Notes: a model not told the origin generated them from the letters alone. Counted from the stretch's first letter, positions 2,084 through 60,804 are shown. The stretch: DNA of 64,000 nucleotides from an uncultured Cytophagales bacterium (GCA_964511645.1 CAZEGV010000005.1:1157-65156), one strand, 5' to 3'. Made by a program: numbers and translations.

Positions 2084-4402
2084 TTAGTATAACACTGCTA
2101 CTTTTTTCCTCATTTTTTTTGCTGTATTTACTAAATTAATAAGCGCTGACTTTGTTTCTGGCCAGTCTCTTGTTTTTAATCCACAATCTGGATTAACCCA
2201 AATGTGATTTACGGGAAGCAAATCGCTCGCTTTTGTTAAGAGGTTTTCTATTTCATCTTCAGTAGGTACTCTTGGCGAATGGATGTCATAAACTCCTGGA
2301 CCTATTTCGTTTGGATATTTAAAATCAACAAAAACATCTAGTAATTCCATCTCTGATCGAGAAGTCTCAATAGTAATTACATCTGCATCCATATCTGCTA
2401 TACTTGCTATGATGTCATTAAACTCTGAGTAACACATATGTGTATGAATTTGTGTTTTGTCTGCAACACCACTTGCCGAAATACGAAAAGATTCTACAGC
2501 CCAATTTAAATAATTCTTCCAATTTTTCTTACGAAGAGGCAGTCCTTCTCTGATAGCTGGTTCATCTATTTGAATTACCTTAATTCCTGCCTGTTCCAAG
2601 TCATTTACTTCATCTCTAATAGCTAGTGCTATTTGCCGACAAGTTTCTGATCGTTTTTGATCGTTTCTTACAAAAGACCATTGCAAAATGGTAACAGGAC
2701 CTGTTAGCATTCCTTTTACTGGTTTTGAGGTAAGTGATTGTGCGTAAGAAGACCATTTGACAGTCATAGGGTTTGGTCTAGAAACATCTCCAAAAATAAT
2801 TGGGGGCTTCACGCATCTACTTCCATAACTTTGTACCCAACCAAAATTAGTAAAAGCAAAGCCTTCTAGTTTTTCACCAAAATACTCTACCATGTCATTT
2901 CTTTCAAACTCTCCATGTACTAATACATCTATTCCCGTTTCTTCTTGAAATCGAATAGTTTCTTCCGTTTCTTTTTGAATCAGCTCATCATACTGGGTTT
3001 GTGTTAATTCATTTTTCTTGAATTTAGCCCTCCAAGACCTTACCTCTTTTGTCTGAGGAAAAGAACCTATTGTGGTTGTGGGAAATAATGGTAAATTTAA
3101 TTCTTCTCTTTGTTTCTGCTGACGAGTAGAAAATTTAGATGCTCTTTGGCTATCATTAGTCGTTAAATTAGCAACTCTTTGCTTCACTTTTTGGTTATGT
3201 ATAAGGGTAGAGGTTTTTCTGTTTTGATTAGCTTTTTTATTCTCCTCTAATTTTTCTGCTGTATTCTTATCAATTTCTCCACTAGCTAATTTTTTAAGTG
3301 TTACTATTTCATCTACTTTTTGCTTAGCAAAAGCCAACCATTGCTTCACTTCTTTTGGTAGATTTTCCTCATTCGTTTCTAAGTCTAAATCATATGGACT
3401 ATGTAATAATGAACAAGATGACGATATCCAAACCTTATTTTCTCCAAGAGTATTAACGGCTTTTTTGATTACTTCTAAAGAGGTTAAAAAATCATTCTTC
3501 CAAACATTTCTGCCATCAACAATTCCTAAAGACAAAATGAGCTTTTTATTAAATGATTTAGCTTTTAATACTTCATCTAATTGGGTAGAAGCTCTTATCA
3601 AGTCCAAATGCAAAGCATGAATTGGTAGTTCTAATACTGTATTCAAATTGTCTTGATATGCCTCAAAATAACTTGTAAGAACTATTTTGATTGAAGGAAA
3701 TTTTTCTGCTATTTTTGTGTATGTTTTTGTAATAGCGTCTTGTTCTTGTTTAGAAAGATCTAACGCTAAGCAAGGTTCATCAAATTGAATATACTCAACT
3801 CCTTTAGCGTCTAATTGCTCAAGTAATTCAAAGTAAATAGGCAAAATAGCATCTAATAGCTCTATTCTATGAAACCCCTCTTCTTTTTCTTTTCCTAACA
3901 AAAGATAGGTAACAGGACCAATAATTACAGGCTTAGTCTTGATGCCTAAATCTAAAGCTTCTTGATATTCATGAACGATTTTAGATGAGAACAATTCAAA
4001 TGTTTGATTTTTATCAAACTCTGGAACAATATAATGATAATTTGTATCAAACCATTTGGTCATTTCCATAGCAGTAATGTCAAAACCATCTTTTTGAATA
4101 CCTCTTGCCATAGCAAAATAAAGATCTAACTGATTTCGGGTGTTTTTAACACTACTATATCTTTTAGGAATACAACCTACTGTTAGTGACATATCTAACA
4201 TCTGGTCATAAAAAGAAAAATCATTAGATGGTATCAAGTCAATACCCAAACTTTGTTGAAGTGAGAGTTTTTCTTTTCTAATTACTACTCCAATTTTTAA
4301 TAACTCATCAGAAGAAATCTCTCCTTTCCAATATTTTTCAGATGCTTTTTTTAATTCCCTTTTACTACCCACTCTTGGATATCCTAATATAGAAGTTTTC
4401 AT
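2084..4402 (-). CDS. metE: Cobalamin-independent methionine synthase (5-methyltetrahydropteroyltriglutamate-homocysteine S-methyltransferase)
   Basis: 772 aa, the length of a two-barrel MetE. It has the N-terminal MKTSILGYPRVGSKRELKKA motif and the C-terminal zinc-site region HTHMCYSEFNDI ... NPDCGLKTR. Confidence 0.95.
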   Translation of the reverse strand: MKTSILGYPRVGSKRELKKASEKYWKGEISSDELLKIGVVIRKEKLSLQQSLGIDLIPSNDFSFYDQMLDMSLTVGCIPKRYSSVKNTRNQLDLYFAMARGIQKDGFDITAMEMTKWFDTNYHYIVPEFDKNQTFELFSSKIVHEYQEALDLGIKTKPVIIGPVTYLLLGKEKEEGFHRIELLDAILPIYFELLEQLDAKGVEYIQFDEPCLALDLSKQEQDAITKTYTKIAEKFPSIKIVLTSYFEAYQDNLNTVLELPIHALHLDLIRASTQLDEVLKAKSFNKKLILSLGIVDGRNVWKNDFLTSLEVIKKAVNTLGENKVWISSSCSLLHSPYDLDLETNEENLPKEVKQWLAFAKQKVDEIVTLKKLASGEIDKNTAEKLEENKKANQNRKTSTLIHNQKVKQRVANLTTNDSQRASKFSTRQQKQREELNLPLFPTTTIGSFPQTKEVRSWRAKFKKNELTQTQYDELIQKETEETIRFQEETGIDVLVHGEFERNDMVEYFGEKLEGFAFTNFGWVQSYGSRCVKPPIIFGDVSRPNPMTVKWSSYAQSLTSKPVKGMLTGPVTILQWSFVRNDQKRSETCRQIALAIRDEVNDLEQAGIKVIQIDEPAIREGLPLRKKNWKNYLNWAVESFRISASGVADKTQIHTHMCYSEFNDIIASIADMDADVITIETSRSEMELLDVFVDFKYPNEIGPGVYDIHSPRVPTEDEIENLLTKASDLLPVNHIWVNPDCGLKTRDWPETKSALINLVNTAKKMRKKVAVLY

Positions 4403-5027: not shown

Positions 5028-5593
5028 AACCCATACCTAATACCTAGTTGAATTGTATTATTATACCATACAACAGGATCTTTACGTATAGAACGAAGGC
5101 TGTATTCTGTACCTAACTCTACGTCTAACTCTTCGATGACAGCAATTGCCAATTTTAAAGCCAATCCATAATCATTTTTATTTAGTAGGGTAGAAATATC
5201 ATTTTTGATAGCACCTTGCCTAGCTTTAGCAGAAGCTAAACGAGCAACATAAGCTCCTAAGCCAAATCGGAAATCCTTATAAACATAAGACGCAACAACA
5301 GGAGCATCAATATACAATAAAGAAACACTTAAAGCATTAGCTGGGTTTCTAGCACCTTTTCTTGCCAAATTCAACTGAAACGACAATTCAAAACCATCCG
5401 AAACATCCGCCTTAATGCCTAAACCTCCATAAGCACCCACCAAGTGATACCCAGCCAAAAGATCCCCATCTATCTGATTACCCGACACACCTACCGTCAC
5501 AAACCCTTTTATCTCTTGAGCTTGCACAGAGGCAATACTCAATACCATCACACAGAAAAAACTAAACCAATTCATCATTATAAAATTTTTCAC
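5024..5593 (-). CDS. Small outer-membrane beta-barrel (porin-family) protein
   Basis: It has the signal peptide FFCVMVLSIASVQAQE, an alternating beta-strand pattern and a C-terminal ...LGIRYGF ending in aromatic Phe. The true start is probably an internal Met (5578 or 5575), because the ORF overlaps the upstream gene. Confidence 0.65.
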   Translation of the reverse strand: MKNFIMMNWFSFFCVMVLSIASVQAQEIKGFVTVGVSGNQIDGDLLAGYHLVGAYGGLGIKADVSDGFELSFQLNLARKGARNPANALSVSLLYIDAPVVASYVYKDFRFGLGAYVARLASAKARQGAIKNDISTLLNKNDYGLALKLAIAVIEELDVELGTEYSLRSIRKDPVVWYNNTIQLGIRYGF

Positions 5594-6020: not shown

Positions 6021-6619
6021 CGATGATATTTTTTTTCTCCTGCAGGGATAGCTATTCCTAACACATTCTCTCTAGGCGGAATAGGACAAATATACTCATC
6101 ATTATACGCACAATAAGGATTAGTAGCCATATTAAAATCTAACAAATATTTTTTCTCTTGAAGAACCCTTGGTTTTACGTGCAAATACCTTCCTGTATCA
6201 TAAGTAGATTTTCCGTTAGTTTCATCCCCAAAAGGCAATAATAAATCACTGGGGTTTTCTTCATTCTGATACAGAAACAAAACACAAGCTTTTTTATGTA
6301 AGACAAACTCTAAGCGAGCCACTTTTTTATACATTTTAGGAGACTTTCCACTTGTCTGCTGAATTTGTACGTAATCATCCCCATCTAGCAACACCACCTT
6401 TATTTCCACCCTATATTTTTCATCTACCTCATAAAAATAAAGTTGTTGAGGAGGATTTTTAGCATCAAAAGGAGAATCAAAGTTACGTTGCATAAAAGCC
6501 AACAATTCCTCTCTTTCTTGACTTACAGTATCTATATAATTACTTGACGATGAAAACACACTTATCATAACCATCCCTAAAACTATCGCCAAAACACCTA
6601 CCACAGCCACTTTCTTCAT
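6017..6619 (-). CDS. DUF1684 domain protein
   Basis: 200 aa with an N-terminal TM or signal. The C-terminal block GKSTYDTGRYLHV ... DFNMATNPYCAYNDEYICPIPPRENVL matches the recalled DUF1684 signature. Confidence 0.65.
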   Translation of the reverse strand: MKKVAVVGVLAIVLGMVMISVFSSSSNYIDTVSQEREELLAFMQRNFDSPFDAKNPPQQLYFYEVDEKYRVEIKVVLLDGDDYVQIQQTSGKSPKMYKKVARLEFVLHKKACVLFLYQNEENPSDLLLPFGDETNGKSTYDTGRYLHVKPRVLQEKKYLLDFNMATNPYCAYNDEYICPIPPRENVLGIAIPAGEKKYHR

Positions 6620-7299
6620 AACTCTCCCTTATCTGCGAAGCTATAATACGCCTCATTACAAAATATAACATGATCCAACACAGGAATCTCCAACAGCTTC
6701 CCTGCCTCTACCAATTTCTTCGTTATCCGCCTATCTGCCTCACTTGGTTTCAATTGTCCAGAAGGATGATTGTGAACCAATATAATTGCCGAAGCTCTTT
6801 GTTCTAATGCTAATTTAAAAATTACTTTAGAATCAACACTTGTCCCCGATACACCACCCTTAGAAATCTGCATTGTTTTCATTACTTTATTAGCCCTAGA
6901 CAATGCCAAAACCCAAAACTCCTCATGATTCAAGTCCAAAAGATAAGGTCGAAGTACCTCATAAACATCCTTCGAGGAAGTGATCTTAATCTCTTCTACC
7001 TTCGATCCCTTCCGCCTTTTACCCAATTCTAAAGCACTTACAATACTAATTGCTTTTGCCTCACCAATCCCTTTAAATCTCATCAAATCTGGCACAGAAA
7101 GCCGAGCAAAAACATCCAATCGATGACCACAAGACCCCAGCATATCCTGAGCCAACTCCACCGCATTTTGCTCACGATTACCACTGCCAATCAATATCGC
7201 TATCAACTCACTATCGCTCAAAGCCTTCACACCTTTTAGCATTAATTTTTCTCGTGGTCTATCGTCTTCCGAAAGATCTAAAATCTTCTTTTCACTCAT
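6616..7299 (-). CDS. radC: RadC-family JAB-domain protein (UPF0758)
   Basis: 227 aa with an HhH region (LMRFKGIGEAKAISI) and the JAMM-like motif ILVHNHPSGQLKPSEAD. Confidence 0.9.
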   Translation of the reverse strand: MSEKKILDLSEDDRPREKLMLKGVKALSDSELIAILIGSGNREQNAVELAQDMLGSCGHRLDVFARLSVPDLMRFKGIGEAKAISIVSALELGKRRKGSKVEEIKITSSKDVYEVLRPYLLDLNHEEFWVLALSRANKVMKTMQISKGGVSGTSVDSKVIFKLALEQRASAIILVHNHPSGQLKPSEADRRITKKLVEAGKLLEIPVLDHVIFCNEAYYSFADKGEL

Positions 7300-7384
7300 T
7301 AATGCAAACTAATTGAATTAGTTTAAAAAATCAAGAAGAAGGCATCAAGTCTGTTTTTTTTTGAAATGATATAAAATAAAAACA

Positions 7385-7476
7385 GGAGCTTCCTCCTCGT
7401 ACCTCGGAGTCGGGCTATCCGTTCCCAATCTTCCCGATAAAAAATCGGGAAGGATTTCCACTTCTATCCCTAAGCC
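7385..7476 (-). repeat. Structured intergenic element, copy A (minus orientation)
   Basis: The reverse complement reads GGCTTAGGGATAGAAGTGGAAATCC-TTCCCGATTTTTTATCGGGAA-GATTGGGAACGGATAGCCCGAC-...AAGCTCC. It aligns box for box with the copies at 19282, 29456, 45508 and 59091. Confidence 0.8.
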
Positions 7477-7649
7477 AAAACCAGTAACCCCAAACAAAAC
7501 ACAATAAATTTTTAATTACTCAGTATAAAAAATTAAAAATCATTAAAAAAACAACAAAAAACAAAATAAAATTTTGCTCTCATAAGAGTATTATTTATTG
7601 CAGACTCAAATAATAATGATTACTTTTACCAGCTAAAATAAACCTAGAA

Positions 7650-8732
7650 ATGACAGCATTTCTCATCATACTACCATTCATACTAATTTACACCATTTTT
7701 GTGGTGTGGGCAGAACGAAAAGTAGCTGGTTTTGTACAAGACAGGCTTGGTCCTGTAGAGGTAGGTTACAAAGGGTTATTACAAACCATAGCCGACCTAC
7801 TTAAACTCATCCAAAAAGAAGACTTAGTACCTAAAGCAGGAATTAGGATAATCTTTTTATCAGCACCAGTAGTAATTGTAGCTGCTATTTTATCGGGATT
7901 TTCAACCATTCCATTGTCGCCAAACTGCATCGGTTCTAGCACCGAAGTAGGAGCTTTTTATTTAATCTCTATTATTTCTTTAGACGTTATTGGTTATATA
8001 ATGGCGGGATGGGGTTCTAACAACAAATACTCAACACTTGGTGCCATGAGAGCAGTTGCTCAAATCATCTCTTACGAAGTGCCGCTCACCTTGATTATTT
8101 TAGCAATGCTTATGATTGGACAAACCCTAGACTTGCAAGAACTATCATTTCAGCAAAGCTATCTCTATACAGGGCAAAGCTATTTGTTTGGGCTAAAATC
8201 TTTAAATATTAATATCTCAGATATGGGAGGAGTTTTATCGTGGAATATCATACGCTTTCCTTTTGCCATCATAGGCTTTGTAGTATTTTTTATTGCCTCA
8301 TTGGCAGAAGCCAACCGAGGTCCTTTTGATATCGCCGAAGCAGAATCAGAAATCATCGCAGGATTCCATACCGAGTACAGTGGCTTTAGGTGGTCAATGA
8401 TTATGCTTGGCGAATATGCTATATTGTTACTAATGGCATTACTTGGCACTATTCTATTCTTTGGAGGATGGAATACACCTTTCCCTAATATTGGTGATAT
8501 ACGATTAGCCGAGTGGACAACTGGCGATATCAAAGGAATATCAGGCTTGCTTTGGGGTATGTTTTGGTTATTCTCAAAAGCAATCATTTGGATTTTAGTC
8601 TCTTTATGGGTACGGTGGACTTACCCTAGACTTAGAATAGATCAGCTCATGTACTTTTGTTGGAAAGTATTAACCCCATTATCTATATTATTTGTATTAC
8701 TAGCAGGTGTTTGGCGATTAATGATGATATAA
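7650..8732 (+). CDS. nuoH: NADH-quinone oxidoreductase subunit H
   Basis: 360 aa polytopic membrane protein with ND1/NuoH blocks (VWAERKVAGFVQDRLGP, EAESEIIAGFHTEYSG). It is the first gene of a nuoHIJKLMN run. Confidence 0.93.
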   Translation: MTAFLIILPFILIYTIFVVWAERKVAGFVQDRLGPVEVGYKGLLQTIADLLKLIQKEDLVPKAGIRIIFLSAPVVIVAAILSGFSTIPLSPNCIGSSTEVGAFYLISIISLDVIGYIMAGWGSNNKYSTLGAMRAVAQIISYEVPLTLIILAMLMIGQTLDLQELSFQQSYLYTGQSYLFGLKSLNINISDMGGVLSWNIIRFPFAIIGFVVFFIASLAEANRGPFDIAEAESEIIAGFHTEYSGFRWSMIMLGEYAILLLMALLGTILFFGGWNTPFPNIGDIRLAEWTTGDIKGISGLLWGMFWLFSKAIIWILVSLWVRWTYPRLRIDQLMYFCWKVLTPLSILFVLLAGVWRLMMI

Positions 8733-19145: not shown

Positions 19146-19281
19146 TAGTTAAAATTTCACTCCAATTATTTTAATCCTTAAAATTAAAGATTAAACTTTG
19201 ATTTATTATTAATGTATTAACAAGCCTCATTTCTACACATTACTTGTCTGTATTTTTAATTAAGCTATTTTTCGCTTAATT

Positions 19282-19359
19282 GGCTTAGAGATAGTAACGA
19301 CATCCTTTCCTATTTTTTTATCGGAAAGATATAGCGAATAGCCTGACCTTATATAAGCC
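19282..19359 (+). repeat. Structured intergenic element, copy C (short form lacking the 3' hairpin)
   Basis: The sequence is GGCTTA-GAGATAGTAACGACATCC-TTTCCTATTTTTTTATCGGAAA-GATATAGCGAATAGCCTGAC-cttata-TAAGCC. The terminal GGCTTA and TAAGCC are complementary. Confidence 0.8.
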
Positions 19360-19386
19360 GATAGAAAAATACAAGGAAATCTCCTA

Positions 19387-28405: not shown

Positions 28406-29182
28406 ATGAACGATGAGTATAAAAAAATAATTAAAAATAAGATAATTACCTTTGGGGTCAACTTGGAACAAGAAACATCCATGAAGAAGAAATTGAAAAA
28501 GAAATCAAGACATGTCCCTAAAAAAGTAAGCCAAGCTGTTAAAAAGAGACACCACTTCGAATGTGCATGGTGTGGAATTGGGTTTACTGAAAGGCATCAT
28601 ATTGAAGAATTCTCGCAAGGAGGAGAGCATACAGAGGGAAACTTAATCTTATTATGTCCAATATGTCATAAAAAAGTACATCAAGGTAAAATATCGACAA
28701 GTGAATTGATTACAAGAAAATCTACTCATTTTAAATGCGATCGAATTTCTTCAAATTTCCAATCAACTATGGATAAACTGAAATTCAAGATTGGTGGCAC
28801 CTATTATTTTGACTCAGAGAATTTTTTAACTTACAAGCACGAAAAAGTGTTACATTTCGAAATTCGTGATAACCGATTATTGATTAATCTCAAGTTCTTT
28901 AATAAAAAAGGGGATTTGATTTTTTGGATGTCTGAAAATTATTTCTGGGTTAGTAGTGTCTTTAGTATTAAATCAAAACTGAATATTATTGAAATTAACC
29001 ATAATAAGGAAGAGCTTATTTTTAAGATGGAGAAAATAGATGACTATTTGAAAATTACATTGAAAACCTTTTTAGGTGGTGAGATTTTTGATTTCAATGA
29101 AAATTCGACAAACCTTCTTGGAAATAGATTTCATTTCGAAGGTCATTCTGTAACCTCTAAAGACATCTTTAACATAGGATAG
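28406..29182 (+). CDS. HNH endonuclease-domain protein with an uncharacterised C-terminal domain
   Basis: The HNH core is CAWCGIGFTERHHIEEFSQGGEHTEGNLILLCPICHKKVH (CxxC...HH...N...CxxCH), preceded by a Lys-rich stretch. The C-terminal roughly 150 aa is beta-rich with no recognised motif. An alternative start is ATG 28481 (MKKKLKKK). Confidence 0.8.
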   Translation: MNDEYKKIIKNKIITFGVNLEQETSMKKKLKKKSRHVPKKVSQAVKKRHHFECAWCGIGFTERHHIEEFSQGGEHTEGNLILLCPICHKKVHQGKISTSELITRKSTHFKCDRISSNFQSTMDKLKFKIGGTYYFDSENFLTYKHEKVLHFEIRDNRLLINLKFFNKKGDLIFWMSENYFWVSSVFSIKSKLNIIEINHNKEELIFKMEKIDDYLKITLKTFLGGEIFDFNENSTNLLGNRFHFEGHSVTSKDIFNIG

Positions 29183-29446: not shown

Positions 29447-29455
29447 GTTTTTTTT

Positions 29456-29604
29456 GCGTGAGGGGTAGTAGTGGAAATCCTTTATTGTTATTATGATTTT
29501 GTCATATAGGGCTTGTCGAAGCATAAAAATCATAATAACAATAAAGATTGGGAACGTATAACCCGACCGCATGAGCCTTCCTTTTGGCGAATGTGGGCAA
29601 GCCC
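29456..29604 (+). repeat. Structured intergenic element, copy D (expanded middle hairpin)
   Basis: The sequence is GCGTGA-GGGGTAGTAGTGGAAATCC-[20-bp perfect stem 29481-29500/29526-29545]-GATTGGGAACGTATAACCCGAC-[hairpin]-CAAGCCC. Confidence 0.8.
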
Positions 29605-29630
29605 AAAGATTTTAAAAAAAAATGGCTAAA

Positions 29631-30686
29631 TCAGGTATATTGACTTTCGTAGTATGATTGATACTCCCCCGACACTACGTCTTCTAACCACTTCTCATTG
29701 TCCAAGTACCAAGCTACAGTCTGGTGTAACCCTTCTTCAAACTGAAGGCTTGGCATCCATCCCAAATCATCCTTTACCTTGCTTGCATCTATTGCGTAAC
29801 GCATATCATGTCCTGCTCTATCCGTTACAAATGTAATGAGTTGTTCAGAAGTACCCGCAATTCTCCCTAATTTTTCGTCCATCACCTTACAAAGTAATTT
29901 TATCAAATCAAGGTTTGTCCATTCATTCCACCCACCTATATTATACGTTTCTCCGTCTTCTCCCTGATGAAAGATAGTGTCTATCGCACGGGCATGATCT
30001 ACAACATAAAGCCAATCTCTGATGTTATCCCCTTTTCCATATATCGGTAATGGTTTGTTATTTTTTATATTATTGATGCATAGTGGTATCAATTTTTCAG
30101 GAAACTGATTAGGTCCGTAGTTATTAGAGCAGTTAGAAATAACCGTCCGTAGGCCATAAGTATTGTTATAAGCCCTTACAAAATGGTCAGAACTTGCTTT
30201 GGATGCCGAATACGGGGATTGTGGATCATAAGCTGTGGTTTCCAAAAAAAAACCTGTATCACCCAAAGATCCGTAAACTTCATCTGTAGAAACATGGTAA
30301 AACAAATGCTTGTCGCTAGATAAATCCCATAATTCTTTAGCCACGTTTAGCAGTATCGCTGTTCCTATAATATTAGTCTGGATAAATGCTAATGGATTTT
30401 CGATAGATCTATCTACGTGAGACTCTGCTGCAAGATGAATTACATAATCAATTTCATACTTTTCAAATGTTTCTTTTACTTTTGATTCATCACAAATATC
30501 CCCTTTTACAAAGACATAATTATTAGTAGTCTCTACCTCTGTTAAATTTTTAAGATTTCCTGCATAAGTAAGGGAGTCAAAATTAACAATTCTATACGTT
30601 GGATATTGCTCTACAAACAATTTCACAACATGAGAACCAATAAATCCAGCTCCTCCTGTAACTAATATATTTTTTTTAAACTTCAC
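29631..30686 (-). CDS. rfbB: dTDP-glucose 4,6-dehydratase
   Basis: 351 aa extended SDR with TGGAGFIGSH, the catalytic YSASKASSD and the typical RfbB C-terminus. Confidence 0.92.
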   Translation of the reverse strand: MKFKKNILVTGGAGFIGSHVVKLFVEQYPTYRIVNFDSLTYAGNLKNLTEVETTNNYVFVKGDICDESKVKETFEKYEIDYVIHLAAESHVDRSIENPLAFIQTNIIGTAILLNVAKELWDLSSDKHLFYHVSTDEVYGSLGDTGFFLETTAYDPQSPYSASKASSDHFVRAYNNTYGLRTVISNCSNNYGPNQFPEKLIPLCINNIKNNKPLPIYGKGDNIRDWLYVVDHARAIDTIFHQGEDGETYNIGGWNEWTNLDLIKLLCKVMDEKLGRIAGTSEQLITFVTDRAGHDMRYAIDASKVKDDLGWMPSLQFEEGLHQTVAWYLDNEKWLEDVVSGEYQSYYESQYT

Positions 30687-34387: not shown

Positions 34388-34675
34388 ATGAAATTACAAA
34401 TCAGTTCTTTAAAATTTGATGCCGACGAAAAACTTCTTGACTACATCCAAAAAAAAACAGACAAACTAGAAACTTTTCATGATAAAATCATTGACGGGGA
34501 AGTTAGTCTCAAGCTTAATAAAAATGAAATGAGAGAAAACAAAACCGTTGATTTAAAAGTAAGAATCCCTGGTGCATCATTATTTGCCAGCGAGCAAAAA
34601 GCATCTTTTGAAGCAGCAACAGAAGAAGCTGTAGAATCTATCAGAAGACAATTAAGAAAACAAAAAGGGAAATAA
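34388..34675 (+). CDS. hpf: Ribosome hibernation promoting factor / RaiA family (short form)
   Basis: 95 aa S30AE/sigma-54-modulation family pattern (MKLQISSLKFDADEKLLDYIQKK..KL ... ASFEAATEEAVESIRRQLRK). Confidence 0.8.
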   Translation: MKLQISSLKFDADEKLLDYIQKKTDKLETFHDKIIDGEVSLKLNKNEMRENKTVDLKVRIPGASLFASEQKASFEAATEEAVESIRRQLRKQKGK

Positions 34676-34695
34676 ACACAACGATTTTACAAACT

Positions 34696-34726
34696 AAAAA
34701 AGGCTTCCAAATGGAAGCCTTTTTTA
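34696..34726. terminator. Bidirectional rho-independent terminator between hpf and fbaA
   Basis: AGGCTTCC (34701-34708), loop AAAT, GGAAGCCT (34713-34720). It is flanked by an A-run upstream and a T-run downstream. Confidence 0.8.
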
Positions 34727-34750
34727 TTAATTTTATTTTTATCTAATCAA

Positions 34751-35833
34751 TTATCCTTGATTAGTATTCACATTGTTCAATTCTTCAAATGTACGTTTAA
34801 GGCGAATCACAAAAGCTTCTTCTGCTTTTCTTAACCAAGCACGTGGGTCATAGAATTTCTTATTTGGCTCATCAGCAGCATTAGGGTTACCAATTTGAGC
34901 TTGTAAGAAATCGTGGTTTGTAGCTTCATAAGCTCTAACACCATCCCAAGTAGCCCATTGCATATCCGTATCAATGTTCATTTTGATACTTCCGTAAGAA
35001 ATAGCTTCTCTGATTTCATCAACTGTAGAGCCTGAACCACCGTGGAATACAAAATTCACTGGTTTCTCTCCTATACCAAATTTTTCTTGAATGTATTTTT
35101 GAGAATTATCTAAAATAGTTGGAGTCAACTTTACATTACCTGGCTTATACACACCATGTACGTTACCAAATGATGCCGCAATAGTAAAGTTTGGACTTAC
35201 TTCTAATAATTCTTTATAAGAATAAGCAACTTCTTCTGGCTGAGTATATAGTTTAGAATCATCTACTTCAGAGTTATCTACACCATCTTCTTCACCACCT
35301 GTGATACCTAGTTCTATTTCTAAAGTCATCCCCATCTTAGACATACGCTCTAAGTATCCTTTACAGATAGAAATATTTTCTTCTAATGGTTCTTCAGATA
35401 AATCAATCATATGAGAAGAAAACAAAGGCTTACCTGTTGCTGCAAATTCTTTTTCTGAAGCGTCAAGAAGACCGTCAATCCAAGGAAGTAATTTTTTAGC
35501 ACAATGATCAGTATGTAAGATAACTGTTACACCATACGCTTTAGCTAATTCATGTACATGCTTAGCACCAGAGATAGATCCTAATATTGCTCTCGTATGA
35601 GAATCAACATCTAAGCCTTTACCAGCATAAAACTGTCCACCACCATTAGAAAACTGGATGATAACAAGAGAATTTAACTTTGCAGCTGTTTCTAATACTG
35701 CATTTATAGAATTTGTACCTATTACGTTAACCGCAGGAAGTGCAAAATTATTTGCCTTAGCATAAGCAAAAATTTCTGATACTGTTTCCCCAGTAGCTAC
35801 ACCAGGCTTAAATTTTGTGTTTACTGCACTCAT
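34751..35833 (-). CDS. fbaA: Class II fructose-bisphosphate aldolase
   Basis: 360 aa long class IIa type, with HTDHC, FSSHMIDLSEE and the zinc-ligand regions HGVYK and FVFHGGSGS. Confidence 0.92.
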   Translation of the reverse strand: MSAVNTKFKPGVATGETVSEIFAYAKANNFALPAVNVIGTNSINAVLETAAKLNSLVIIQFSNGGGQFYAGKGLDVDSHTRAILGSISGAKHVHELAKAYGVTVILHTDHCAKKLLPWIDGLLDASEKEFAATGKPLFSSHMIDLSEEPLEENISICKGYLERMSKMGMTLEIELGITGGEEDGVDNSEVDDSKLYTQPEEVAYSYKELLEVSPNFTIAASFGNVHGVYKPGNVKLTPTILDNSQKYIQEKFGIGEKPVNFVFHGGSGSTVDEIREAISYGSIKMNIDTDMQWATWDGVRAYEATNHDFLQAQIGNPNAADEPNKKFYDPRAWLRKAEEAFVIRLKRTFEELNNVNTNQG

Positions 35834-45441: not shown

Positions 45442-45507
45442 AAAACAACGCTTACAATTCGTAAAATATAGCACTCTTGTAATTATTCACTAATTAAAAG
45501 AGTGCTA

Positions 45508-45618
45508 CGTTAGGGATAGAGCGGTTTGTCTGAAATCCTTTCCGATTTTTTTATCGGGAAGATTGAGTAGCGAAAGCCTGACCCCGTCTCGCCTTTTTCG
45601 GCGTACGGAGGAACGCCC
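45508..45618 (+). repeat. Structured intergenic element, copy B
   Basis: The sequence is CGTTA-GGGATAGAGCGGTTTGTCTGAAATCC-TTTCCGATTTTTTTATCGGGAA-GATTGAGTAGCGAAAGCCTGAC-[hairpin CCGT..CGCC/GGCG..ACGG]-AACGCCC. Confidence 0.8.
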
Positions 45619-45630
45619 AAAACTATCTCA

Positions 45631-46977
45631 CTAAAATATTCCTGTAAAATTATGAGGAGTAATTACCCTAAGCTCTGCTTTAATCTCTTCTGAAACATCT
45701 AGTGTCTCTATAAAGGATGCAATAGTATCTGCAGTGATTGCTTCGTTTTTACGTGTTAGTTCCTTAAGTGCTTCGTAAGGATTTGGGTATGCTTCTCTTC
45801 TTAATACCGTCTGGATAGCTTCTGCGACTACTGCCCAATTGTCCTCCAAGTCTTTTTTGATAGCGTCTTCATTAATCAAAAGCTTATTTAAACCTTTTAA
45901 TAATGAGTTTAATGCGATTTGGGTATGTCCAATCGGCACACCTACGTTACGCAATACGGTAGAGTCTGTTAGGTCACGTTGTAAACGGGATATAGGGAGT
46001 TTTTGAGATAGGTGTTCATAAATTGCGTTTGCAATCCCTAAATTACCTTCTGCATTTTCAAAATCAATTGGGTTTACTTTATGAGGCATTGCCGATGAAC
46101 CAATTTCTCCTTTTTTGATTTTTTGTTTAAAATATCCCATCGATACGTATTGCCATATATCACGGCTAAGGTCTATCAGGATGGTATCAATACGTTTGAT
46201 AGCGTCAAACATTGCTCCAAGGTTGTCGTAATGTTCGATTTGGGTGGTATGCTGACTGCGAGAAAGTCCTAGGGTGTTATTTACAAAATTGTTAGCGAAT
46301 TTTTGCCAATCAATATTTGGATAGGCGACATGATGAGCATTAAAATTTCCTGTAGCCCCGCCAAATTTAGCTGAAAAAGGCACAGTTTTCAATTGGGCTA
46401 ATTGTGCTTCTATACGTTCATGAAATACTAAAAATTCTTTCCCTAATTTGGTAGGTGAAGCAGGTTGTCCATGTGTCTTAGCAAGCATCGGTATCTTTTT
46501 CCACTCAGTAGCTAGTGATTTTATTTTGGTTTGTACTTGCGTCAGAAGTGGGAGTAATTCGTTTTGTATTCCTTCTTTTAGCGAAAGCGGAACAGATGTA
46601 TTATTAATATCTTGAGAGGTAAGTCCAAAGTGAATAAACTCTTTGTACTTGCTAATGTTTAATTTATCAAAGGCATCTTTTATAAAATATTCTACTGCTT
46701 TTACATCGTGGTTAGTGATGGCTTCTTTATCCTTAATCCATAAGGCATCAGCTTCCGAAAACTCAGTATAAAGTTTTCTTAAATCACCAAAAATGTTTTT
46801 ATCAAAGCTTTTTAATTGTGGTAACGGAAGTTCGCACAAAGCAATGAAATACTCAACTTCTACACGTACACGATAATTGATAAGTCCAAACTCTGAGTAA
46901 TACTTGGCAGTACCCGCAGTGTGTCGTCTATAACGCCCGTCAATTGGTGATACAGCAGTAAGTGAAGTTAATTTCAT
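45631..46977 (-). CDS. purB: Adenylosuccinate lyase
   Basis: It has SPIDGRYR near the N-terminus and the fumarate-lyase signature GSSAMPHKVNP. ATG 46977 (MKLTSLTAVSPIDGRY) is preferred to the upstream TTG at 47004. Confidence 0.93.
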   Translation of the reverse strand: MKLTSLTAVSPIDGRYRRHTAGTAKYYSEFGLINYRVRVEVEYFIALCELPLPQLKSFDKNIFGDLRKLYTEFSEADALWIKDKEAITNHDVKAVEYFIKDAFDKLNISKYKEFIHFGLTSQDINNTSVPLSLKEGIQNELLPLLTQVQTKIKSLATEWKKIPMLAKTHGQPASPTKLGKEFLVFHERIEAQLAQLKTVPFSAKFGGATGNFNAHHVAYPNIDWQKFANNFVNNTLGLSRSQHTTQIEHYDNLGAMFDAIKRIDTILIDLSRDIWQYVSMGYFKQKIKKGEIGSSAMPHKVNPIDFENAEGNLGIANAIYEHLSQKLPISRLQRDLTDSTVLRNVGVPIGHTQIALNSLLKGLNKLLINEDAIKKDLEDNWAVVAEAIQTVLRREAYPNPYEALKELTRKNEAITADTIASFIETLDVSEEIKAELRVITPHNFTGIF

Positions 46978-57816: not shown

Positions 57817-57860
57817 ACAATATCACTTTTTCCATATTAACCTTAAAATGGTATTGCTAA

Positions 57861-57889
57861 TTTGGGCGTTTCCCCACTCGCAAAAAAAA
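57861..57889 (-). repeat. Minimal or internally deleted copy of the structured intergenic element
   Basis: The reverse complement reads TTTTTTTTGCGAGTGGGGAAACGCCCAAA. This is the 5' leader T8-GCG(T)GAGGGG joined directly to the 3' end AACGCCC of the full copies. Confidence 0.45.
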
Positions 57890-59070: not shown

Positions 59071-59090
59071 TTATAGCGTAAGTTTTTTTT

Positions 59091-59205
59091 GCGTGAGGGA
59101 TAGTAACGGCATCCTTTTTTTGACTTAAAAACAATAATAAATAAAAAAAGATATAGCGCATAGCCCGACATCATTTCGCTTTTTCAGCGAGATGATGGCA
59201 CGCCC
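59091..59205 (+). repeat. Structured intergenic element, copy E
   Basis: The sequence is GCGTGA-GGGATAGTAACGGCATCC-[T7...A7 hairpin]-GATATAGCGCATAGCCCGAC-[12-bp hairpin 59169-59180/59186-59197 with one G-T]-GGCACGCCC. It abuts the speE-like stop codon (59206). Confidence 0.8.
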
Positions 59206-60804
59206 TTAATACAAGTCCCAATTACCCTTGAGGTAATAGTTAGGCAAACATGGTCTAGCCAATGTGTTTACTTTAATTCCGCTAGTATCCACCATCGGCT
59301 TGCCAAAAGAAGTCAACAAAGCAACTGACTCATTGTTTAACCATTTATGATTTTTTTTCGAGAAATCTGTTTGGTGAAGTTTTTTTTTCATCCCCACCTT
59401 ATTTAGTATCTTACTCCCAATCACCCAACCCCACTCTCCCATTGTAATCACCTGATTATGAATCGGTAAAGTATAAAATCCAGTCTCTTGCATCGTCTTT
59501 TCAATACAATAAAAAGCTTTGGTAGCAAAATAAGGACTCCCAGCCTGGGTAATCACAATACCATCATCTGCTAACAAATCATTGATGTACCCATAAAAAT
59601 TTTTGGTGTATAGTTTATTGATGTCAATCGTCCTTGGGTCAGGTAAGTCAATAATCACCAAATCATACTTTTTATTACTTTCACGGGCATATATAAAAGC
59701 GTCTTGGTGAATAATTGTCACTTTTTTATCTGACAAAGAGTGTTGATTCATACTCAATAACGCAGGATGAGTTGATGCTAAAATTGTCATTTTAGGGTCT
59801 AAATCTACTAGGGTAATCTCTTCTATTTCAGGATGTTTAAGCAGTTCTCTAACGGCACATCCGTCTCCTCCTCCCATAATAAGAATTTTTTGTTTTTGAT
59901 TGCTCAAGGCTAATGGGATTTGTACCAATGGCTCATGATACATCCATTCGTCAAAGGAAGATAATTGTTGATTACCATTGATAAATAACCAATAATAACC
60001 TTTGGATTCGGTAATAACTATTTTTTGGTATCGGCTTTGTTCTATGTGGATTATTTTGTCTTTATAACGCTTCTGCTCTCCAAAAAGAATAATTTTTTCG
60101 GAAAATACACAACCACTGATAATGAGTATGAAGGTTGCTAAAAAGGCGAATCGTAATGTGTTTTTTGATTTTAGAGAATTTGATAATTTAAAAATAATAA
60201 TAGACGCTACTAATAAGTTAACTAAACCTAAAGCGTAAGGGGTATAGGTCATTCCTAAATACGGAATTCCTATAAAAACAAAAAACACTCCGCCTATTAA
60301 GCTTCCTATATAATCCCATGACATCACAGAGGCTATGTTGAGTCGAAGTTCCTCGTATTTCTCATTAATTCTCGTGACGAGGGGTATTTCCATACCTATC
60401 AATAGACCTATGCAAATACTTAAGGCGTAAATAATAATACCGTAGTAAACGGTTCGTCCAGCGGCGACAAAGACAATAGATGCGGTAAAAGATATTAAAA
60501 TTGATAAGGCAATTTCAATCCACACAAATTTGTCTAATAAATCATGGATTAAAAAACGGCTCAAGCGACTACCTATTCCCATAGAGAATAGCATCACCGA
60601 TATAATCATCGTCCACTGAACGGTCGCATCGGGCAAAAAATAAGAGGCGAGTGTTGCCAAAATATATTCGGCAACTACGCCTGCTATACCTGTTGCTAGT
60701 AAAGAAAATTTAAGAATAGTTGAGCTTAAATCTTTGTGTTGATTATTTCCCAAATCCTCCTCCTCTTGACCTTGAGCTTCCTGAACTTCTGTACCTCGAT
60801 CCAC
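59206..60804 (-). CDS. speE: Polyamine aminopropyltransferase (spermidine-synthase-like) fused to an N-terminal polytopic membrane domain
   Basis: 532 aa with about 7 predicted TM helices in residues about 25-235. The C-terminal domain carries ILIMGGGDGCAVRELLKH..IEEITLVDLDPKM and VIIDLPDP, which are spermidine synthase blocks. The start is uncertain, because ATG 60804 overlaps the upstream gene by 62 nt. Confidence 0.85.
   Translation of the reverse strand: MDRGTEVQEAQGQEEEDLGNNQHKDLSSTILKFSLLATGIAGVVAEYILATLASYFLPDATVQWTMIISVMLFSMGIGSRLSRFLIHDLLDKFVWIEIALSILISFTASIVFVAAGRTVYYGIIIYALSICIGLLIGMEIPLVTRINEKYEELRLNIASVMSWDYIGSLIGGVFFVFIGIPYLGMTYTPYALGLVNLLVASIIIFKLSNSLKSKNTLRFAFLATFILIISGCVFSEKIILFGEQKRYKDKIIHIEQSRYQKIVITESKGYYWLFINGNQQLSSFDEWMYHEPLVQIPLALSNQKQKILIMGGGDGCAVRELLKHPEIEEITLVDLDPKMTILASTHPALLSMNQHSLSDKKVTIIHQDAFIYARESNKKYDLVIIDLPDPRTIDINKLYTKNFYGYINDLLADDGIVITQAGSPYFATKAFYCIEKTMQETGFYTLPIHNQVITMGEWGWVIGSKILNKVGMKKKLHQTDFSKKNHKWLNNESVALLTSFGKPMVDTSGIKVNTLARPCLPNYYLKGNWDLY

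Follow-up and report, generated by a model that had tools for sequence, protein, structure and literature searches.

The 64,000-nucleotide (nt) stretch of DNA analyzed here, referred to as the window, comes from an uncultured Cytophagales bacterium (GCA_964511645.1, CAZEGV010000005.1:1157-65156) and contains five copies and one remnant of a repeat that is Flavo-1 (Rfam RF01705), a structured intergenic repeat found across the Bacteroidota. The copy at the center of this work, copy E, occupies positions 59088-59205 on the given strand. It lies directly against a gene on the opposite strand (59206-60804, 532 aa), which encodes a spermine/spermidine synthase domain (Pfam PF01564, Spermine_synth, E = 3.8e-36) and whose stop codon starts at 59206, the first position past the element. 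The remaining copies are found at 7381-7479 (copy A, minus strand), 19279-19365 (copy B), 29453-29608 (copy C), and 45504-45622 (copy D), the last three on the plus strand, for a density of about one per 13 kb. Copies C, D, and E are located between convergent ends of open reading frames (ORFs) in the ORF list of the window. An earlier reading of this DNA, made from the sequence alone, had reported five copies, three of them between convergent gene ends and one touching the stop codon of speE. Direct reading, the ORF list, and matches to an independently built model bear out these observations.

A scan of the whole window against Rfam returned a single family, Flavo-1. The gathering score of its model, which comprises 76 positions, is 42 bits. 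Copy A scored 61.5 bits and copy E 49.9 bits, and a sensitive scan gave 45.3 bits for copy C and 41.4 bits for copy B, the latter marginally below the cut-off. Copy D, when its region was searched alone, scored 20.6 bits, far below the cut-off, with Flavo-1 still the top family. Three of the five copies (A, E, and C) are therefore formal members of RF01705, and B and D can be regarded as decayed copies, D being called degenerate because of its low score. In addition, a covariance model (R2) was built from 18 elements of other genomes, with the window copies left out. When run unfiltered on the window, it found exactly five copies: copy E at 59088-59209 (66.6 bits, E = 2e-14), copy A at 7381-7479 on the minus strand (55.5 bits, E = 1.3e-11), copy B at 19279-19365 (47.3 bits, E = 1.4e-9), copy C at 29453-29582 (36.8 bits, E = 5.9e-7, with 36.8 to 48 bits across runs of R2), and copy D at 45504-45622 (23.0 bits, E = 0.0017). 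The next match had an E-value of 2.4. Patterns of the two conserved boxes of the element were also enriched over shuffled sequence (3 found against 0.41 expected, and 2 against 0.06). That the repeats could result from chance resemblance, or be decayed fragments of insertion sequences (IS), has a probability close to nil: this explanation is already refuted by five matches, with E-values of 2e-14 to 2e-3, to a model made from other genomes only, and by covariation far above both the shuffled and the slid controls described below. No transposase was found among the ORFs flanking the copies, nor was a long form of the element found in a search for long versions.

The clean match to RF01705 came from a check that the sequence-only reading had proposed, and the novelty implied there does not survive it. 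Flavo-1 was described in 2010, on purely computational grounds, from 239 instances in Flavobacteria, other Bacteroidetes, and a few Spirochaetes (Weinberg et al. 2010, Genome Biol 11:R31, PMC2864571), and it is typed in Rfam as "Gene; sRNA". The window fits this host range, as the purB gene next to copy D is most similar to Flavobacteriales proteins (75-83% identity). The main outcome is thus deflationary, in that the finding is real and the element already catalogued. The identity of the repeats and the anatomy presented below are, taken together, close to certain.

Each copy, on one particular strand, folds into a three-way junction. The junction is closed by a 5-bp helix (P1, consensus GCGUK/MACGC), whose 5' strand is followed by an invariant junction A. 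The second helix, P2, has a nearly invariant base, in which GGG-A-UA-GNA-RY pairs with RY-GNA-UA-G-CCC, and which includes purine-purine mismatches of two kinds (a single A-G and a GNA/GNA loop). At its tip, P2 bears a hairpin that can be exchanged freely and varies in length, with a U-run on the 5' side and an A-run on the 3' side on both strands. After the GAC that follows the P2 base comes the third helix, P3, a hairpin that spans 8 to about 60 nt and whose structure alone is conserved. A CCAAA tail directly follows the 3' strand of P1. The consensus layout of the element is thus a T-rich flank, GCGTKA, GGGATAG...ATAGCCCGAC, a hairpin of 8 to about 60 nt, K, MACGC, and CCAAA, and conservation extends from about position -9 on the 5' side to about 10 nt beyond P1 on the 3' side. 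The two boxes, which the sequence-only reading had taken to be single-stranded, are in fact the two halves of one helix (GGG/CCC, UA/UA, and RY/RY, with GNA/GNA loops). The consensus structure of Rfam and the covariation agree on this pairing, and the RY/RY helix is paired in 96-98% of cases, as GC, AU, UA, or CG.

As the Rfam model stops 8 nt after box 2, P1 and P3 had to be tested on other copies. These were collected with an exact-pattern scan that used one genome per species and yielded at least 119 loci. A first pseudo-model (R1), made from an alignment in which the variable arms had been replaced by N, was replaced by R2 since it performed poorly on real sequence. The R2 alignment contained 121 copies from 99 loci and the window. 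Although this alignment was fitted to the model, tests of P1 that involved no structure fitting agree with it. In the alignment, 94.0% of the cells in modeled pairs were paired, compared with 74.8% in shuffles (reached by 0 of 500). The covariation score was 0.431, against 0.125 when shuffled and at most 0.063 in the slid controls. For P1, 98.2% of cells were paired, and all 5 pairs had changed on both sides. Without structure fitting, 108 of 123 elements carried the exact complement of their own upstream 5-mer downstream, compared with 7.6% when the 5-mers of other elements were used. At least four of the five P1 pairs could form in 76 of 87 copies when the 3' strand was placed only by means of the CC[AT]A tail, and in an alignment not fitted to structure both sides again changed in all five pairs. 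The claim that the closing helix varies in sequence yet stays complementary therefore holds across independent copies. The view of the repeats as structured elements rather than random ones, with hairpins that act as exchangeable modules, is supported as well. Folding of single sequences recovered the comparative structure in part only.

In one uncultured Flavobacteriales lineage (L014, L031, L048, L066, L072, and relatives), P3 is a hairpin of about 55 nt. The outer 9 bp of P3 are wholly different between copies and still complementary, and the P2 tip is near-identical. An upstream motif, CTTTGCACTTATNTCA, accompanies 6 of 12 copies of this lineage. Two other readings of the structure were considered and rejected. 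Extension of P1 into the flanks, by pairing of the 5' T-run with a 3' A-run, gave 53.6% paired cells and no covariation. A tRNA-like reading of P1 and the CCA that follows it found no support, as ARAGORN detected no tRNA or tmRNA in the window and the discriminator base is absent.

All five window copies show the same order of parts, from a short 5' strand and box 1 (GGGATAG.A..GG) through a hairpin and box 2 (...ATAGCCCGAC) to, usually, a second hairpin and the closing strand, and the coordinates reported earlier for the closing helices of E, D, and B proved exact. In copy E, P1 is formed by GCGTG (59091-59095) and CACGC (59199-59203), with the junction A at 59096. Box 1 (GGGATAGTAACGG, 59097-59109) and box 2 (GATATAGCGCATAGCCCGAC, 59150-59169) enclose an AT-rich distal arm of P2 (59110-59149), and P3 is a 10-bp hairpin with one U-G pair (59170-59198). 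Only the CC of the tail is present (59204-59205), and the AAA that is normally found there is replaced by the stop codon of the opposite-strand gene (59206-59208). Copy C also has GCGTG as the 5' strand of P1 (29456-29460), paired to CAAGC (29598-29602) with one G-A mismatch. A perfect stem of about 20 bp takes the place of the distal arm of P2, as seen in its predicted fold, and the tail is CCAAA.

The P1 of the degenerate copy D, ACGTT (45507-45511) with AACGC (45612-45616), consists of 4 bp (CGTT, 45508-45511, with AACG, 45612-45615) and one A-C. Its box 1 contains an 8-nt insertion (TTTGTCTG), its box 2 terminates in AAAGCCTGAC, and its tail is CCAAAA (45617-45622). Copy B has a P1 of GGCTT(A) (19282-19287) and (T)AAGCC (19354-19359), decayed boxes (GAGATAG for box 1 and ATAGCCTGAC for box 2), and no P3 hairpin. 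In copy A, on the minus strand, GGCTT (7476-7472) pairs with AAGCT (7391-7387) with one G-U. Its boxes are canonical, its P3 is short (CUCC/GGAG), its tail is non-canonical, and its flanking genes are divergent (a radC-like gene at 6616-7299 on the minus strand, and nuoH at 7650-8732 on the plus strand). A sixth, internally deleted copy was found at 57860-57885 on the minus strand from a weak match of R1 and from the sequence. Here, the 5' flank and the start of P1 (TTTTTTTTGCGAG) are fused directly to the 3' end (TGGGGAAACGCCCAAAT), with P2 and most of P3 gone, in what looks like, to judge from its sequence, the footprint of an internal deletion. Convergent ORF ends surround this remnant as well, and it has the 5' flank of copies C and E, TAAGTT(G)TTTTTTTTGCG. 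This shared flank is part of a mosaic pattern of kinship within the window: P1 is shared by A and B, the middle hairpin by A, B, and D, and the box variants by B and E.

Two further features of the window should be mentioned here. An HNH endonuclease gene (28406-29182, plus strand) lies about 270 nt upstream of copy C, and the radC-like gene downstream of copy A encodes a JAB domain. The element showed no general association with genes of these kinds. Furthermore, a perfect, bidirectional terminator-like hairpin (AAAAAAGGCTTCCA..TGGAAGCCTTTTTT) is present at 34690-34730, between ORFs at 34388-34675 (plus strand) and 34751-35833 (minus strand), and accounts for all weak Rfam matches there to leader and small RNA (sRNA) families.

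We then asked which of the two strands folds. Among the modeled pairs, G-U was found 39 times and A-C 15 times on the given strand (p = 0.0015). The given strand gave the more stable fold of P3 55 times, against 11 for the other strand, and of the whole element 89 times, against 18; the P2 tip showed no strand preference (43 vs 58). The strand specificity that had been read from wobble pairs in two of the window copies is thereby supported. These measures show that selection acts on one single strand, and RNA and folded DNA are indistinguishable by them. Of the earlier proposal, that the repeats are a functional RNA or a structured DNA recognized by a protein, what stands is a structured and strand-specific element.

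The position of the element relative to genes tends to follow a rule, as seen in about 120 copies from loci L001-L119 and the window. The gene on the 3' side is encoded on the opposite strand in 58 of 98 cases, with its stop codon at a median of 23 nt from the tail. This distance is at most 10 nt in 19 of these 58 and at most 30 nt in 31, and the stop codon sometimes replaces part of the tail, as it does in copy E. Genes that end toward the 5' side lie at a median of 153 nt, with only 7 of 58 no farther than 30 nt away (Fisher p = 3e-6). Because the tail abuts an opposite-strand stop codon, the structured strand is antisense to the abutted gene. In the window, the rule holds for B, C, D, and E, which is four of the five copies. 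The tail of copy D is 9 nt from the stop codon of purB at 45631 (the gene was identified by its Lyase_1 and ASL_C Pfam domains), the tail side of copy B is 22 nt from the stop codon of an enoyl-ACP-reductase-like gene on the other strand (19387), and an opposite-strand ORF beside copy C has its stop at 29631. About 7 of 12 copies sampled from Flavobacterium psychrophilum fit as well (Table S3 coordinates, PMC9723704). Where two copies lie close together they are invariably head to head, as the stop-codon rule predicts. A reading of these pairs as doublets of the kind seen in REPINs, which are paired repetitive extragenic palindromic (REP) sequences, was rejected, as the spacers are unrelated to each other. 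Convergent contexts outnumber divergent ones by 28 to 13.

Several features that could have been expected of a gene or a mobile element were sought around the copies. Only 7 of 127 copies had the Bacteroidota -7 box, TAnnTTTG, in the 100 nt upstream, at no constant position, and upstream conservation was flat beyond -9, so that no promoter belonging to the element itself was found. Flanking direct repeats of 3-6 nt, as would be left by target-site duplication, were no more frequent than in shuffled pairs. Among the 403 ORFs neighboring the copies there was no recurring protein family that could be a partner gene. The ORFs between inverted pairs of copies, present at two loci (L022 and L111), were mutually unrelated and contained no transposase motif recognizable by eye, and a search for long, cargo-bearing versions between the boxes returned chance pairings only.

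Turnover of the element was followed at a single orthologous site, between serB and GH3 in Flavobacterium; for the window, the nearest relative of purB is 83% identical. At the serB/GH3 site, the element is present in L045, L061, L120-123, L130, and L136, always with GCATG/CATGC as P1. It is absent from L131, L132, and L135, where the SerB protein is identical to that of L130 and an Mrr gene is found instead, and from L168 and L169, which have a 62-bp spacer with a terminator only. This comparison of presence and absence, another check proposed by the sequence-only reading, thus found both, and shows that Flavo-1 copies are retained at one site from species to species, and are nonetheless gained or lost among close relatives. 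Three filled versions of the site combine two P2 tips with two P3 hairpins in three combinations, from which it follows that replacement affects a single module at a time; gene conversion from other copies would be the simplest explanation. The intergenic region, compared downstream of serB in L120-L137 and L168-L169, is itself a hotspot of variable content, and in different relatives contains an Imm-NTF2-2 immunity-like gene, an Mrr restriction-endonuclease gene, an ORF of 171 aa, an ORF of 92 aa, or nothing. Other repeats were noted next to Flavo-1 in Flavobacterium. Immediately upstream of the Flavo-1 copy in L136 lies a tandem array of about ten units of about 22 bp (GATGTGAAATTTGACGTCTNT, ~3990-4240), and palindromic repeats of other families lie beside the element in L130 (~3830-3950), L045 (~5028-5106), and L120 (~3830-3900). 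Examples of such palindromic neighbors in Flavobacterium are GTCATTTCGACGTAAGGAGAAATC...GATTTCTCCTTACGTCGAAATGAC and GACGCGAGCGTCTCGCTCGT...ACGAGCGAGACGCTCGC.

Among the matches listed, Flavo-1 copies came from Flavobacteriales, Sphingobacteriales, Chitinophagales, Saprospiraceae, Tannerellaceae, Treponema, and others. Most of the subfamilies outside Flavobacterium that R2 recovers, such as the GGAAAGCCCACAG...GAGGACTTG type, escape the Rfam model at its cut-off. In phages the element is rare, as the exact pattern occurred in only 16 stretches of 2.9 million IMG/VR contigs. A literature search for the box sequence yielded nothing relevant.

Published expression data offer a lead on whether the element is transcribed. 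The genome of F. psychrophilum contains 128 Flavo-1 matches (Guerin et al. 2021, PMC9723704), and we read the own-strand signal of 12 sampled copies (flavo-1_0001 to 0044) from the strand-specific array data in Table S3 of that study. In 9 of the 12, the signal rose on agar from about 4-8 to 9-14 (log2), up to about 100-fold and most strongly on diluted medium, and the rise was found even in copies that are antisense to an expressed operon. Seven of the nine rising copies carry the cluster labels B546/C143, and an eighth belongs to the neighboring B460/C133. One of the 12 tracks the nrdAB operon in which it is contained. This pattern is not discussed by the authors of the study. In a study of Leptospira, transcripts were likewise found to overlap Flavo-1 matches.

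Taken together, we tentatively favor, at somewhat less than an even chance for the whole chain, a model in which Flavo-1 is a REP-like structured repeat that is read as a single strand, probably as RNA. Like the REP, bacterial interspersed mosaic element (BIME), and enterobacterial repetitive intergenic consensus (ERIC) sequences of enterobacteria, it would be a non-coding, non-autonomous repeat that is tolerated in the 3' flanks of genes. Its invariant core would probably be read in single-stranded form by a conserved trans-acting factor. The single strand would most likely be RNA that arises when read-through or pervasive transcription runs toward the end of the abutted gene, and the junction may stop or process such antisense-running transcripts and persist as a small, stable fragment. 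The stopping or processing of transcripts is the weakest link of this mechanism. The array signal, the purine-rich loops, and the junction itself are our reasons for preferring RNA. A wider reading, which is speculative and rather unlikely to hold in full, is that Flavo-1 as catalogued is the mere middle arm of an undescribed, Bacteroidota-specific and strand-specific device, whose structured strand lies antisense to neighboring, often core, genes and against their stop codons. Such a device could be a factor-dependent transcript barrier that leaves a stable small RNA, or a folded-DNA site for a recombination or copying enzyme.

A number of observations weigh against the RNA model. Where the neighboring genes are co-directional, the structured strand is sense in 20 cases and antisense in 21, and a promoterless RNA should prefer sense. 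The structured strand lies on the G-rich strand at 55 loci and on the other at 30, which hints at replication over transcription; the version of this bias based on GC skew at third codon positions (GC3) is 54 against 30, with t = 2.4 for the intercept after regression on gene orientation. The window opposes this trend, with four of its five copies on the C-rich strand. (Across positions 1-64000, its GC skew is negative almost throughout, at about -0.1 to -0.24 where genes are on the minus strand.) A hairpin followed by a U-tract was found in only 5 of 102 copies in sense and 6 of 102 in antisense, for which reason identity with an intrinsic (Rho-independent) terminator was rejected as well. 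In 77 of 115 copies, the P2 arm contains a conserved C-A (alignment A3, columns 34/135; the AAAGCCC/GAGGACUU subfamily), which would be a G-U on the opposite strand. We know of no binding factor for Flavo-1. As to the array data, 2 of the 12 sampled copies were silent, and the rise in the others could stem from cross-hybridization among similar copies, for which reason we treat the signal as a lead only. Finally, the matches in F. psychrophilum can be in sense or in antisense to transcribed regions, and many are located elsewhere (PMC9723704).

The G-rich bias, weak as it is, is among the observations that favor a reading in which the junction forms on one strand of DNA, for example on the lagging-strand template, and is copied or recombined by an HUH or tyrosine enzyme, in the way that REP-associated tyrosine transposases (RAYTs) act on REPs and REPINs, or that such enzymes act on the ends of IS200/IS605 and an integrase acts on attC sites. 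This is possible, but on balance doubtful. The orientation, which is independent of host transcription, speaks for it, as do the multiple copies, their gain and loss, and the exchange of modules. The missing promoter and the missing target-site duplications, the latter also a property of IS200/IS605 and REPs, fit too, and G-T and G-A mismatches are tolerated in folded DNA as well. The folded strand is, moreover, antisense to and abutting a stop codon, as in attC. However, no gene for an HUH enzyme or recombinase recurs among the 403 neighboring ORFs, no cargo-bearing version was seen, and the C-rich strand carries four of the five window copies. Genes that the element abuts, such as purB and the fabI-like gene, belong to the core and are not cassettes, and P1, with GTT on the 5' side and AAC on the 3' side, has the reverse polarity of the attC R boxes. 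That copies persist at orthologous sites and undergo compensatory change there speaks for selection on the individual copy and against recent transposition.

Another explanation is that the complementary strand is the one that matters to the host, in line with the conserved C-A, which turns into a G-U there. The element would then form the start of the 3' untranslated region of the abutted gene, or lie just past an upstream cistron, and its stems would protect the 3' end of the mRNA or disturb the termination of translation, as REPs near stop codons reportedly do in Escherichia coli. Tails within 30 nt of, and at times overlapping, an opposite-strand stop codon are in line with this, as are four F. 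psychrophilum copies (0001, 0020, 0040, and 0044) that lie antisense in expressed intercistronic regions, right after the upstream stop. Most stems are Watson-Crick and form on either strand, and the P2 tip has no preference for one. Nevertheless, we consider this explanation unlikely: the G-U counts and the stability of P3 and of the whole element point to the given strand instead, the conserved loops would become pyrimidine-pyrimidine (UNC/UNC), and about 40% of copies have no such abutting gene end. Still less probable is a family of independently transcribed genes for trans-acting sRNAs, with the core as a constant scaffold and the variable hairpins as the regions of specificity. The Rfam class of the family agrees with it, the 5' end of one independent F. 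psychrophilum transcript (Rfp7) harbors a copy, and the own-strand signal of many sampled copies follows a common condition-dependent profile. Against this, neither a conserved promoter at a fixed distance nor a terminator accompanies more than a few copies, and we therefore rejected identity with such a gene. A single F. psychrophilum genome carries 128 copies, many of them outside transcribed regions, and none of 11 sampled copies sought by name appears in the portion of the published transcription-start table that was consulted.

Flavo-1 is among the most abundant unexplained sequence families in the Bacteroidota, and its role is still unassigned 16 years after its description. What is added here is a larger unit that includes P1, P3, and the tail, with a full model that finds copies across the phylum below the Rfam cut-off; a positional rule, by which the tail lies against an opposite-strand stop codon; and a lead on expression, as published arrays suggest that RNA of the element's own strand accumulates on agar. 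If either the RNA-barrier or the folded-DNA reading were true, it would amount to a phylum-specific mechanism at the ends of genes.

Several known systems resemble Flavo-1 in part. As with BOX and ERIC elements, it is modular, with end modules that pair around a variable middle, and compensatory substitutions point to a folded single strand. The sequences of those elements are unrelated to Flavo-1, however, and the modules of BOX vary in copy number rather than by swapping of hairpins. ERIC copies are reported to lie in transcribed regions, whereas Flavo-1 copies are sense, antisense, or outside them. The attC sites of integrons share with Flavo-1 conserved terminal boxes that pair, a highly variable central part, a structure-dependent function, and a folded strand that is antisense to the adjacent ORF, with the site at or a few nt from the stop codon. 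The P1 of Flavo-1 reads GCGTK...MACGC (GTT...AAC), however, and the R''/R' boxes of attC read RYYYAAC...GTTRRRY (AAC...GTT). We rejected identity with attC on the basis of this reversed polarity and of the dispersed copies, one per intergenic region beside core genes, with no cassette arrays and no integrase. Miniature inverted-repeat transposable elements (MITEs), moved by cut-and-paste DDE transposases, were rejected as well, as there are no target-site duplications and the terminal helix covaries rather than being constant.

Flavo-1 also resembles REP, BIME, and REPIN sequences, which are likewise short, structured, multi-copy intergenic repeats at the 3' ends of genes, often by stop codons, with no coding capacity, no target-site duplication, and genome-specific subfamilies. 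REPs, however, measure 20-40 nt, fold as simple imperfect hairpins that contain a GTAG motif, and are restricted to a genus or species, whereas Flavo-1 is a three-way junction of 90-150 nt with a core conserved across a phylum. No RAYT-like partner was seen among the 403 ORFs that flank Flavo-1 copies. With the Rfam family itself, the window element shares the boxes and their pairing, the GNA/GNA loops, and the variable tip, as well as multiple copies, the lack of a consistent gene association, and a range of Bacteroidota and a few Spirochaetes. The catalogued model covers the P2 arm only, and the real unit adds to it P1, P3, and the CCAAA tail.

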